Positions 33,006-36,017 of a stretch of DNA of 64,000 nt are shown here, one piece after another. The notes beneath the pieces were generated by a model. It searched no databases. It had not been told where the DNA came from and saw only the letters and a program-made list of their open reading frames with translations. Origin of the DNA: an uncultured Candidatus Actinomarina sp. (GTDB taxonomy: Bacteria; Actinomycetota; Acidimicrobiia; Actinomarinales; Actinomarinaceae); the NCBI GenBank assembly GCA_902634185.1, contig CACPJC010000003.1, positions 64,001 to 128,000 of the forward strand, read 5' to 3'. Each line of letters starts with the position of its first letter. Within the stretch, counting starts at the first letter, position 1. A program made the translations under genes and the position numbers.

Positions 33006-33346
33006 TGGTGGAGGTGCGGGGAGTCGAACCCCGGTCCTTTTAAGCTACCCAACAGCTTCTCCGAGCGCATCTGGTGAAATACTATTGAGAGAGTCACCAG
33101 AAACAAATTCTCAATAGTTTCTACCTTAAATCTTAAAAGTTAGCCGGTAATCTAACTTAGCATCCCACATTTCGACGCCGATACTACCCGAGGTGGGAGC
33201 CCCGATAGTCGACGAGCAACAATTAAGCTGCTACGGCCAATTTAGGTTTGGCAGTTATCTTTTTTTTCCTACGTTTTTAATGAGGCCCTAGGACCCTCAG
33301 CTCGCTACTGAGAGGCTCGCTTCAAAGTCGAAGCCAGTTCACCCCC
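33006..33346 (-). ncRNA. ssrA: tmRNA; tag peptide (A)AKPKLAVAA* at 33252-33223
   Basis: 5' GGGGGTGAACTGGCTTCGAC; 3' GGGTTCGACTCCCCGCACCTCCACCA; resume context ATAACT-GCC; tag ends AVAA-TAA. smpB lies about 5 kb away. Confidence 0.96.
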
Positions 33347-33397: not shown

Positions 33398-34045
33398 ATG
33401 AAAATTGATAAACAAACTTTTGATTTAGAAGAAGAACTAAGTATCTCAATAGATTTTGAGGACAATGATGGTTTGATATTTATACCTAAAAATGTAAATG
33501 TAGAAATTAAAATAGCTAACTATTTTGGAAAAATAGTTATAAATAATTTATCTATTAAACATCTTGAAGATGAGCTCTCCCTGTCAAAAGTTGGATTAGA
33601 GCAAAACCTAAATAATCTAGATCTTAAACTTCTCGATAGATTTTTATTTAAGCAGTTGAGTGATAAAGCAACGTTTAATTATTCACCATTCGATTCGTTT
33701 TTAGAATATGATTTTTCTGTATATGAAAAATCAAGAAGACCGAGTGATCTTGATTGGTCTATGTTTGCATCCCTATATGTTTTTGCTTGTAATGTCATTC
33801 CCGAATCAATTAAAGTAGAGTTAACTCTTGCAAAATATTTAAGAGTATCTGAAGAAGTTTTTAAAAGACTATTAAAGAAAATTCCAGACAAAATATTTAG
33901 AAAAACAGGACACCTTGAATCTAGAGGTGGTAATTTAACTTTCGATGCTGAAGAGTTAATAAAGAAAAATCTTAACGACACTCAGGCAAAATTATTTGAA
34001 GAAAGTCCTTTTTTGAAATTTCATTCAGGTTCTGATTTGGTCTGA
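33398..34045 (+). CDS. Hypothetical protein, possible C-terminal HTH-like region
   Basis: Clean 215-aa ORF filling the gap divergent from ssrA; LAKYLRVSEEVFKRLL...RGGNLT. Confidence 0.55.
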   Translation: MKIDKQTFDLEEELSISIDFEDNDGLIFIPKNVNVEIKIANYFGKIVINNLSIKHLEDELSLSKVGLEQNLNNLDLKLLDRFLFKQLSDKATFNYSPFDSFLEYDFSVYEKSRRPSDLDWSMFASLYVFACNVIPESIKVELTLAKYLRVSEEVFKRLLKKIPDKIFRKTGHLESRGGNLTFDAEELIKKNLNDTQAKLFEESPFLKFHSGSDLV

Positions 34046-34464
34046 GCTCTGCTGACCATTGATATAACCTTACCAACATCAATTTCCCATATTTCTCTGG
34101 ATTTGAATCCTGCTTGCTCCCAAGTAACATCTTCTGTTCTACCATAAGGTTTACCTGAATATCTATTTGATAAATAATCTATGTGGTCATTTGCAGTCGA
34201 ATCTTGAACAATATTTTTAACAACACCCCTTATCTCCCAACATGTATACATATCAGATGGATGAAATATAACGAGTGAAATATTTGGTTCCTTCCTTATG
34301 TTTTCTGTTTTTTTTCTTCCTTGTTCTGTGTTGATAAGAATTTTATTATCTTTGTAATCAACCCACATTAAATGATTCTGCATCTCTTTTTCATTGATTT
34401 TGGTTGATAATGCACAAAAAGCATTGTTATCAATTGCTTGCTTAAGTTCATCTGGAAGTTGCAT
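34021..34464 (-). CDS. PPOX-class (pyridoxamine 5'-phosphate oxidase-like) probable F420-dependent oxidoreductase
   Basis: LST....MWVDY....INTEQGRKK..NIRKEPNISL, EIRG, HID.LS.RY.G..Y. Confidence 0.85.
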   Translation of the reverse strand: MQLPDELKQAIDNNAFCALSTKINEKEMQNHLMWVDYKDNKILINTEQGRKKTENIRKEPNISLVIFHPSDMYTCWEIRGVVKNIVQDSTANDHIDYLSNRYSGKPYGRTEDVTWEQAGFKSREIWEIDVGKVISMVSRAQTKSEPE

Positions 34465-34494
34465 ACGCTTTTATTTTAAGTAAAAATTACTTAT

Positions 34495-35058
34495 ATGGCA
34501 TTTATAAAATTATTCAAATTTGAAGAATCATCTGGCTTATTAAAAAAAGAGTATGAAAAAGGTATGCGCAGAGCTGGAAGAATTTGGAATGTGCTTACAA
34601 TTCAATCACAAACTCCTGAAATATTAAAAGACTCAATGAATCTATATGGATCAACAATGTTTGGTAATTCAAATATTTCAAGGTTCGATAGTGAATTATT
34701 AGCTGTCGTTACTTCTATTTCAAACGAATGTGAATATTGAATACGAGCACATTTATATGATCTTCGGTCGGAGACAGATAATCAAAAATTAGTAGATGAA
34801 ATAGCAGAGGATTGGACCAAAAGCTCTATCTCACCAATACAAATGGCAATGTGTGAATTTGCTAAAAAATTAACGGAAAATCCAAATAAAGTTAATGAAA
34901 AAGATATTGAATTATTGAGAAGTTACGATTTATCAGATAAAGATATTTCACAAATCGTACAAATTATTGCATATTTTAATTATATAAATAGAGTCGCAGA
35001 TGGACTTGGATTAGAACCAGAAGAATTCATAGATAAAAAAGGTTATAAAAACAAATAA
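34495..35058 (+). CDS. AhpD/CMD-like peroxidase-related selenoprotein (187 aa, Sec at codon 82, CxxU)
   Basis: Two track ORFs are in the same frame, separated only by TGA (34738-34740): ...SISNECEY-U-IRAHLYD...QMAMCEFAKKLT...AYFNYINRVADGLG. TGA occupies the second Cys of NxCxYCxxxH. Confidence 0.85.
34758..34776 (+). promoter_or_regulatory. Putative bacterial SECIS hairpin
   Basis: UG(A)UCUUC-GGUC-GGAGA-CA stem-loop with a G-led apical loop starting 25 nt after the UGA. Confidence 0.65.
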
Positions 35059-35096: not shown

Positions 35097-36017
35097 ATGA
35101 GTAACAACTCAAGATTAGTTATATTGTTCATTGCATTAACTGGAATAGCAGGATTGTCATTTTTTATATTTTCTGAGAATAATGTTGATCAGCAAACTAA
35201 TATCCAATCAGAGGCTGAAATTGAAACGACTACAACAATTTCAATTAATTCAACAACATCAACTTCTACTCCAACAACATTGATGGAAACAACTACAACA
35301 ACATCTACAACTAGTACGAGCACTACAACTACAACTACTATTCCACCAAATCAGACAGCAATATTTGCTACACAAGAAGAAATAAATAATAGTAAAAAAA
35401 TTTCTTATGATTACTTACAAAGTGGCTGTAAAAAAGATGAGCCTAATAATACAGATGAAGAATGGATAAAACCTCTTGAGGTATTTACATACGACGAAAA
35501 TAAAATAAATTTCAACTTAAAAATAGAGTCAACACTTCAACTAAAAGTTGATTGTATCGGAAAGCTAATCACTTCAATCCTCAATGATTCAAGAGGTTGG
35601 ATTAAAGTAACCGAGAAAGAGTTTCAGATAGTTGATAATGTCGAAAGTGAATTTGAATTCATTTTTGCATCGCCCGAAAAAACTGATGAGTTATGTTATC
35701 CACTCGAGACAAATGGAATATATTCATGTAGAAATGAACAACAAATTATTATTAATTTTTTTAGATGGGTTAATGGTGCAATTGATTTTGGATCTGATTT
35801 AGAAACGTATAGATTGTATCTTATCAATCATGAAGTTGGACATATTTTAGAATGGGGTCATGTTGGTTGTCCAAAAGAAGGTGCTTTAGCACCAGTAATG
35901 ATGCAACAAAGTAAATCTACCATGGGTTGCGAACCTTATGGATGGCCAATTTATGAAATTTTAGAAAAAGAATTTGGTATTAATACTTATTCTTATCTGC
36001 CCGAAATTGATAATTAA
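35097..36017 (+). CDS. DUF3152 domain protein (Thr-stalked, HExxH)
   Basis: ILNDSRGW, YSC, IN..RW..G, YR.YLINHEVGH.L..GH..C, APVMMQQS. Confidence 0.88.
   Translation: MSNNSRLVILFIALTGIAGLSFFIFSENNVDQQTNIQSEAEIETTTTISINSTTSTSTPTTLMETTTTTSTTSTSTTTTTTIPPNQTAIFATQEEINNSKKISYDYLQSGCKKDEPNNTDEEWIKPLEVFTYDENKINFNLKIESTLQLKVDCIGKLITSILNDSRGWIKVTEKEFQIVDNVESEFEFIFASPEKTDELCYPLETNGIYSCRNEQQIIINFFRWVNGAIDFGSDLETYRLYLINHEVGHILEWGHVGCPKEGALAPVMMQQSKSTMGCEPYGWPIYEILEKEFGINTYSYLPEIDN

Follow-up and report, generated by a model that had tools for sequence, protein, structure and literature searches.

A probable selenocysteine-encoding AhpD-like gene in an uncultured Candidatus Actinomarina and a candidate SECIS hairpin downstream of its UGA codon

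We analysed a stretch of 64,000 nucleotides (the window) from an uncultured Candidatus Actinomarina sp. (assembly GCA_902634185.1, contig CACPJC010000003.1, positions 64,001 to 128,000 of the forward strand) and identified a reading frame that is interrupted by one TGA. Judging from sequence comparisons, it is very probably one intact gene for an AhpD-like thiol/selenol oxidoreductase of 187 residues, with the UGA at codon 82 specifying selenocysteine (Sec). The features of the locus are collected in Table 1.

Table 1. Features of the AhpD-like locus; positions are those of the window
Feature	Position	Strand	Basis
Predicted complete AhpD-like (TIGR01926) selenoprotein gene, 187 codons + TAA	34495..35058	+	Reading frame, TIGR01926, PF02627, PDB relatives
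UGA codon 82, predicted to be read as selenocysteine; second position of C79-x-x-U82	34738..34740	+	48/48 loci, pairing with Cys
Cys79 codon TGT, first position of the CxxU redox motif	34729..34731	+	Alignment column mostly Cys
Glu67 codon, 12 residues before Cys79; putative AhpD proton-relay Glu	34693..34695	+	Residue spacing compared with the pattern in PMC3141380
His86 codon, four residues past Sec82; CxxUxxxH histidine	34750..34752	+	Invariant in 34 genus sequences
Candidate SECIS core, 5-bp stem UCUUC/GGAGA (one U.G pair) with GGUC tetraloop	34761..34774	+	RNAalifold consensus, invariant rare codons

One reading frame across an in-frame UGA codon

The frame opens with the ATG at 34495 and closes with the TAA at 35056-35058. 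Its sole in-frame stop is the TGA, which lies within the peptide SISNECEY-U-IRAHLYDLRSE and leaves 105 codons on its 3′ side. This agrees with an earlier reading made from the sequence only, which had described a single interruption placed exactly at the second Cys of the AhpD motif and followed by 105 open codons.

When U was entered as C, the read-through protein matched the NCBIfam profile TIGR01926 ('peroxidase-related enzyme') with 135.6 bits at a cut-off of 81.8. Residues 16-176 aligned with positions 15-176 of the 178 in the profile, and the alignment crosses the TGA. The Pfam CMD domain (PF02627) also matches the read-through protein. Relatives were found in the PDB as well (3c1l, 6k40, 2prr, 2pfx and 2oyo, E-values of 1e-19 to 1e-24); the CxxC of these homologues pairs with C79/U82, reading NHCYYC in 3c1l and NRCVYC in 6k40. 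Because this is the sole CMD-family gene of the genome, there is no Cys paralogue that would make it redundant.

Homologues from the same genus carry the same interruption. The gene was matched in 28 of 33 genomes and 27 of these 28 matches hold exactly one TGA; the 28th ends short of the TGA codon. The five genomes that gave no match have completeness values of 74-87%, one of them 77%. At all 48 related loci that we fetched (30 and 18 from two retrievals, with some genomes shared between them and with two class-level relatives of 47-49% protein identity) the stop stands at the identical codon and is a TGA. The sequence-only reading had proposed looking in relatives for a conserved UGA together with its hairpin, and both are kept in all 48 loci.

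For the 34 distinct genus sequences we obtained a dN/dS of 0.08 upstream of the TGA and 0.15 downstream of it; over codons 83-116, which precede the first ATG after the TGA, it was 0.20. These figures are rough, as dS is near saturation. Such values indicate that the downstream codons are under purifying selection.

Conventional annotation sees this locus differently. Translation with table 11 breaks the frame into ORFs of 81 and 71 aa, the second beginning at the ATG at 34843, and in this reading the TGA would be a true stop, that is, the locus would be a pseudogene or a pair of small genes. In favour of this reading, table 11 yields exactly these two ORFs, TGA is a frequent genuine terminator in the genome and public gene calls include 104-aa 'proteins', which form three clusters and begin at residue 87. 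We identified these entries as C-terminal fragments of the split gene. Against a true stop stand the single domain model that covers both pieces, the position of the TGA exactly at the catalytic Cys column and the selection on codons 83-116, which would be non-coding. Additionally, the TGA is fixed down to 47% identity, unlike what is expected of a decaying pseudogene. We consider a true stop exceedingly improbable.

The TGA also appears in public sequencing data. Contigs that extend 31 letters or more to either side of the TGA bridge it in two metatranscriptome libraries of two studies (X15 and X18) and in one DNA run (X2); the evidence from the RNA libraries consists of Logan contigs rather than reads, carries no transcript ends, strand or expression level, and is no proof of transcription because such libraries can contain DNA. 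The contigs of a further run (X17) have fewer than 31 letters to the left of the TGA. In the contigs of four public runs we observed no variant letters at 34738-34740 or 34761-34774, and nearby synonymous sites do vary. A TGY codon in relatives or reads, which the sequence-only reading had named as evidence against itself, was found at codon 82 neither in the relatives nor in the contigs of the four runs.

Selenocysteine machinery, genetic code and further selenoprotein genes

The genome assembly comprises 974 kb in 16 contigs (32.6% GC, 83% complete). A complete Sec pathway, consisting of selA, selB, selD and tRNA-Sec, sits in this same genome, in line with the earlier claim that the organism decodes Sec and with the search for these four genes suggested alongside it. 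The selA gene scored 373.9 bits and has no internal stop. Directly downstream of it lies the selB candidate, an open frame of 560 codons that is likewise free of internal stops. Its score against TIGR00475 (208 bits over positions 2-572 of 581) is below the NCBIfam cut-off of 242, and it contains a GTP_EFTU domain and the SelB winged-helix domain SelB-wing_3 (PF09107, 46.4 bits). The selD gene (371 bits) carries an in-frame TGA of its own, at GAG-U-ACK. The tRNA-Sec was recognised both by Rfam (74.6 bits) and by ARAGORN, which reported it as SeC with anticodon TCA.

The sequence-only reading had described Sec decoding as uncommon in the phylum. Among the organism's nearer kin, at class level, Sec use is not rare: selA scored above the cut-off in 37 of the 58 genomes sampled and, among other families of the class, in 9 of 24.

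In principle, the UGA might be read through without Sec, either under a code in which TGA means Trp or Gly or by near-cognate insertion of Cys or Trp. The database proteins seem to speak for this possibility. In our protein alignment (58 sequences including the query, taken from 76 database matches and the query after omission of short fragments), the codon-82 column holds W in 45 sequences, Cys in 9, R in 2 and a gap in 1, the query making up the rest. The W residues are probably calls made under a TGA = Trp code on short, low-GC contigs. Seven of the nine Cys homologues are TxxC proteins of 45-47% identity and two are CxxC proteins; at the Cys79 column, 49 of the 58 database proteins in the alignment have Cys, 7 have Thr and 2 are gapped. 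Thus, the Cys/UGA pairing that the sequence-only reading proposed to look for is present, with Cys opposite the TGA in database and PDB homologues alike.

Several observations argue against read-through without Sec. Homologues pair Cys, and never a TGG-coded Trp, with the TGA among the loci examined. TGA terminates 174 of the 700 ORFs of at least 200 codons (25%), and the median read-through beyond it is only 6 codons. TGA is therefore an ordinary stop elsewhere in the genome, which excludes a reassigned genetic code. The selA and selB frames lack internal stops, and among the 39 tRNAs the TCA anticodon belongs to tRNA-Sec only, that of tRNA-Trp being CCA. With the complete Sec pathway present besides, we regard read-through without Sec as highly improbable and continue with Sec as the preferred reading of codon 82.

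The AhpD-like gene is accompanied by other predicted selenoprotein genes, at least four in the genome when it is counted together with selD and two thioredoxin-fold genes. One of the latter, on contig C1, encodes a membrane-anchored thioredoxin-like protein with the motif YSDY-U-LGC. The other, on contig C5, encodes a lipoprotein-like protein of the Redoxin/AhpC-TSA fold with WADY-U-GIC. Across the 33 genus genomes, this one included, a single TGA was found in selD in 32, in the C1 gene in 29 and in the C5 gene in 28.

The count of four is a minimum, as it comes from a gap-filling ORF map with 26 candidates, of which 8 were searched with Pfam and the other 18 judged by eye from their context. 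Three of the 8 have redox or SelD domains across the TGA, namely selD and the two thioredoxin-fold genes; the AhpD-like gene was not among the 8 and was added to make four. Three of the 8 matched no family. We rejected candidate C12, which is really two adjacent genes (DUF3159, unrelated to the DUF3152 mentioned below, and MscS), and another candidate whose SepF match is sub-threshold and does not cross the TGA. Two broader filters were abandoned as well. A genome screen for a TGA with a GGU-loop hairpin returned 30 mostly spurious candidates and missed selD, and a log-odds filter on codon usage let 326 of 1536 candidates pass and failed to discriminate.

A candidate SECIS hairpin

Downstream of the UGA, a short stem-loop is formed by a 5′ arm TCTTC (34761-34765), a loop GGTC (34766-34769) and a 3′ arm GGAGA (34770-34774). 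The TGA is separated from the stem by 20 nt and from the loop by 25 nt (34741-34765). The GGUC stem-loop placed 25 nt downstream by the sequence-only reading is thus present, and its distance is the one counted to the loop.

Folding of the single sequence is no evidence for this hairpin by itself: the 81-nt region folds no better than chance (z = +0.89) and is equalled or surpassed by 159 of 200 shuffles. Comparison across relatives is more telling. For 31 distinct 75-nt sequences, the RNAalifold consensus contains no structure but the 5-bp GGUC hairpin. Of these sequences, 30 share the loop GGUC, and the remaining one has CGUGCC. Two pairs of the stem vary, pair 36-49 (UA in 27, CG in 2, CA in 2) and pair 39-46 (CG in 25, UG in 6), and the others are invariant. 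Covariation is thin, with double changes at one pair in 2 of the 31 sequences. Its score was reached by 7 of 500 shuffles, a control that is permissive for related sequences, and a +3 slide scores equally high.

In the class-level relatives the stem is longer, reaching 7 bp (-11.6 kcal/mol) in one and 6 bp (-8.1 kcal/mol) in the other; the 7-bp stem arises where both partners of a U-A pair have changed to give C-G. We rejected a model with 7 bp throughout, as its covariation is weak and the two outermost pairs are formed by the 2 class-level sequences only.

Codon choice offers a further line of evidence. Among the 34 genus sequences, 103 columns combine a conserved amino acid with a degenerate codon, and only 6 of them use a single codon. 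Three of the six are consecutive and coincide with the loop and the 3′ arm: R91 CGG, S92 TCG and E93 GAG, each in 34 of 34 sequences. In the long ORFs of the genome these codons account for 1.2%, 4.6% and 24% of their respective amino acids; the remaining three of the six (AAA, GAT and AAA) are the most frequent ones. The adjacent L90 is encoded by CTC (4.8% usage) in 27 sequences and by CTT in 7. Arg84, seven codons upstream of R91, is encoded by five different codons. Rare codons that stay frozen across the genus point to selection on the RNA, with the caveat that they also encode the invariant peptide DLRSE, so that their conservation is partly protein-level.

The hairpin can be set against the published bSECIS model, in which the loop has 3-9 nt, the upper stem 4-16 bp and the MFE is at most -7.5 kcal/mol (PMC13188914, Fig. 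2); the model further includes a G at one or both of the first two loop positions (G[G|U]NN) and 16-37 nt between the UGA and the loop (PMC13188914). Our candidate agrees with it in loop size (4 nt), stem size (5 bp), the G residues of GGUC and the 25-nt spacing. It also resembles the E. coli fdhF SECIS in being a coding-region stem-loop on the 3′ side of the UGA, with G at the first two loop positions and the same kind of spacing. Measured against the MFE threshold of the model, the stem is much shorter and weaker, and no bulged U is evident: the hairpin alone has -3.3 kcal/mol in the U.G variant of this genome and -6.2 kcal/mol in the commonest variant. In a permissive Rfam search of 34600-34900, we found no SECIS family and only a chance snoRNA at E = 2.3.

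The apical loop of the E. coli fdhF element is also GGUC, and its G23 and U24 contact SelB. A literature search for a statement that the fdhF GGUC loop contacts SelB returned none.

Taken together, the consensus fold and the frozen rare codons suggest that the GGUC hairpin is likely the SelB-binding core. Sec might instead be inserted with the help of an alternative fold or another structure. When the hairpin is forced, a 63-nt stretch has -5.5 kcal/mol, and the unconstrained MFE of -7.7 kcal/mol belongs to a different fold, in which a GUC-GGA-GAC apex sits inside an outer UGAUCU/AGAUCA stem. RNAfold favours the latter for the sequence of this genome and for several relatives. The frozen codons fail to separate the two folds, because both use the same invariant nucleotides. 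Moreover, selD seems to have an element of different architecture, in which the UGA is part of a lower stem UUGAGC/GCUCAA and the apex is variable. However, RNAalifold over the 31 sequences gives the GGUC hairpin only, the alternative fold is weakened in the two class-level relatives, which strengthen the GGUC hairpin, and, within the genus, changes in the outer-stem partner of the alternative fold (codons 94-97) are not visibly compensated. We therefore think it unlikely that the element is one other than the GGUC hairpin.

The two thioredoxin-fold genes provide hairpins of a related kind. Each has a conserved hairpin with an AGUUR loop 17-32 nt past the UGA, and compensatory changes occur in both. 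UUCAU/AUGAA of the C1 gene becomes CUCAU/AUGAG. In the C5 gene, a G-C pair is flipped to C-G, a change that goes with replacement of E by Q and of L by V in the protein.

Known relatives, proposed mechanism and gene neighbourhood

The protein belongs to a selenoprotein family that is already known. An AhpD-like protein (COG2128, CxxU) was described in 2005 as a new selenoprotein family in the Sargasso Sea, represented by 27 sequences and shown with a SECIS prediction (PMC1088965). In 2008, 'AhpD-like 1' stood fourth among the tabulated prokaryotic selenoprotein families from the GOS data, with 299 sequences (PMC2398784), and a 2026 review lists 'AhpD-like protein, TIGR01926, CxxU' (PMC13188914). 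The sequence-only reading had been right to recall AhpD/CMD-like selenoproteins from marine metagenomes. The present gene falls under the same model, carries CxxU with the predicted Sec second and comes from the same marine surface habitat, and we found no difference in kind. In their accessible text, neither PMC1088965 nor PMC2398784 assigns AhpD-like reads to Actinomarina.

Sec use in the lineage has also been reported. Our search of the literature for Actinomarinales and selenocysteine found a single source, a preprint according to which all 84 complete Actinomarina genomes contain selC, selA and selD together with a divergent selB (bioRxiv 10.64898/2026.04.03.716425). It further describes a Sec form of selD and about five deep-Sep selenoproteins per genome (bioRxiv 10.64898/2026.04.03.716425). 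Its authors call Sec use in Actinomarina previously unreported, and the four Rfam models that they applied found no SECIS (bioRxiv 10.64898/2026.04.03.716425). The Sec machinery that we observed agrees with this account (bioRxiv 10.64898/2026.04.03.716425). The term 'AhpD' has 0 occurrences in the main text of the preprint, whereas here the AhpD-like gene is identified and a candidate SECIS is proposed for three of the four genes.

Thus, to call the gene a hidden selenoprotein, as the sequence-only reading did, overstates its novelty. The family and the lineage's use of Sec were both on record; the finding is ordinary but correct, and it leaves existing knowledge of selenoproteins as a class unchanged. 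What we add is the identity of the AhpD-like gene, the argument from rare codons for its SECIS, the AGUUR hairpins of two further genes and the pairing with a PNPOx-like gene. Concrete candidate SECIS hairpins are now supplied where the Rfam models of the preprint found none.

The result is of practical value for annotation. The prediction that pipelines would mis-call the gene is borne out by the database entries, which either write W at the catalytic residue or retain a 104-aa C-terminal fragment. Because standard gene callers cut the gene in two or insert W in this way, databases misrepresent the active site of the only AhpD-family enzyme of a lineage that is highly abundant in the ocean. 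Additionally, a streamlined genome of about 1 Mb appears to maintain the Sec machinery to serve at least four redox proteins.

In the AhpD proton relay, the residues E36/C48/Y50/C51/H55 act in PA0269 and E118/C130/H132/C133/H137 in M. tuberculosis AhpD (PMC3141380). Compared with these two proteins, the pattern Glu-x11-Cys-x-(His/Tyr)-Cys-x3-His is kept at canonical spacing as E67, C79, Y81, U82 and H86, with Sec in place of the second Cys.

The closest characterised homologue is DR1765 of D. radiodurans (PDB 6k40), whose mutant is sensitive to H2O2 and whose complementation needs the CxxC cysteines (PMC8945050). DR1765 itself shares only 12% identity with M. tuberculosis AhpD (PMC8945050), and the role of AhpC reductase is therefore not simply transferable. 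In contrast to the mycobacterial gene, the one studied here has no ahpC neighbour, so that its context does not support such a role; five AhpC-TSA-family genes lie elsewhere in the genome. The enzymatic function is one that we infer by analogy, from homologues of 12-35% identity whose own partners are poorly known.

On these grounds we propose the following course of events. Sec-tRNA would be made by SelA with the selenophosphate supplied by SelD. The mRNA hairpin would be bound by the C-terminal winged-helix domain of SelB, and SelB.GTP would bring Sec-tRNA(Sec) to the ribosome paused at the UGA, after which translation would run on to the TAA at 35056. In the folded protein, Sec82 would take the place of the second Cys in the AhpD CxxC, within the Glu67/Cys79/Tyr81/Sec82/His86 relay. 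Its selenolate may attack a peroxide or an oxidised partner peroxiredoxin and may then form a selenenyl-sulfide with Cys79, to be re-reduced by a thiol or lipoyl system. Sec insertion, binding of the hairpin by SelB, and the substrate and reductant of the protein are all elements that we infer.

A PNPOx-like gene (34021-34464, minus strand) is divergent from the AhpD-like gene, with 30 nt between the two start codons. We also put forward a bolder proposal, which is doubtful when its two parts are taken jointly: the divergent SelB may read a lineage-specific 'mini-SECIS', and the Sec-AhpD and the PNPOx-like flavoprotein may form a dedicated selenium-dependent pair. If the first part were true, the rule would be a stem of 5-7 bp with an R-G-U-Y loop, which is GGUC in the AhpD-like gene and AGUUR in both thioredoxin-fold genes, and it would be missed by current SECIS models and Rfam. 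If the second were true, the pair would serve peroxide or disulfide reduction in one of the ocean's most abundant photoheterotrophs.

On its 3′ side the AhpD-like gene is followed by a Thr-rich DUF3152 gene. The order hyp215/PNPOx/AhpD-like/DUF3152 is absent from the two class-level loci. Within the genus, we observed it in all 26 of the loci that were long enough, this genome counted.

Selenoprotein genes on other contigs of the genome

The second selenoprotein gene, of the Redoxin/AhpC-TSA fold, keeps its single TGA in 28 of the 33 Actinomarina genomes compared (the present one included), and the third, which is thioredoxin-like, does so in 29 of the 33. In the former, a hairpin with a 7-bp stem and an AGUUR loop lies 9 nt 3′ of the UGA, and its stem shows a compensatory flip from G-C to C-G that is tied to two residue replacements, E to Q and L to V. 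The thioredoxin-like gene has a hairpin about 20 nt 3′ of the UGA, with the stem AUUCAU/AUGAAU and again an AGUUR loop, for which compensatory variants are present.

The selD gene is itself a selenoprotein gene in 32/33 genomes of the genus, with an in-frame TGA in the motif GAG-U-ACK. The structure that follows its UGA is unlike those of the other selenoprotein genes: the UGA forms part of its lower stem, UUGAGC/GCUCAA, and neither the sequence nor the register of the apex is constant.

Locations of the selenoprotein genes and of the neighbours of the AhpD-like gene (C1, C5 and C7, other contigs of the same genome; L065–L067, gene stretches cut from them)
Feature	Location	Strand	Remarks
tmRNA gene	window 33006-33346	-	tag peptide AKPKLAVAA; ~1.1 kb upstream of the AhpD-like gene
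PNPOx-like (PF01243) gene	window 34021-34494 (gene itself 34021-34464)	-	divergent from the AhpD-like gene; start 30 nt from its start codon
DUF3152-domain gene	window 35097-36017	+	downstream of the AhpD-like gene
Thioredoxin-like selenoprotein gene	C1:108460-108933 (L065:1-474)	-	membrane-anchored; YSDY-U-LGC
Redoxin/AhpC-TSA-fold selenoprotein gene	C5:13575-14036 (L066:1-462)	+	lipoprotein-like; FWADY-U-GIC
selD	C7:19503-20525 (L067:1-1023)	+	own TGA at residue 12, GAG-U-ACK

Exceptions among relatives and homologues

In one genome of the same genus (G008, a single 1.0-Mb contig, 87% complete), selA was found nowhere above the cut-off (best E 4.9e-5) and the AhpD-like gene had no match, while the in-frame TGA is still present in selD and in both thioredoxin-fold genes. 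Either selA, selB and the AhpD-like gene all lie in the missing 13%, or a transition is under way in this lineage.

Another genome, of the same class (G056, 98% complete), encodes an AhpD-like homologue of 37% identity (C108:2675-3136) with one in-frame TGA, which may lie at the Sec column; the genome search gave no selA match of any score.

Two database homologues with 43–49% identity to the AhpD-like protein, P0050 and P0056, have an Arg in the Sec/Cys column, the motifs being NECDY-R-TQAH and NRCHY-R-TLAH. The Arg may reflect a CGA instead of the TGA, or a calling artefact.

Neighbourhood of the AhpD-like gene

The divergent pair formed by the PNPOx-like and AhpD-like genes recurs with identical spacing in all 26 genus loci of sufficient length, the present locus among them; it is absent from both class-level relatives (two loci compared). 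The two genes may be functionally linked.

The product of the DUF3152-domain gene is signal-anchored, with a long Thr/Ser-rich linker and an HEVGH motif within the DUF3152 domain. It is probably a metalloprotease-like protein, either secreted or located in the envelope.
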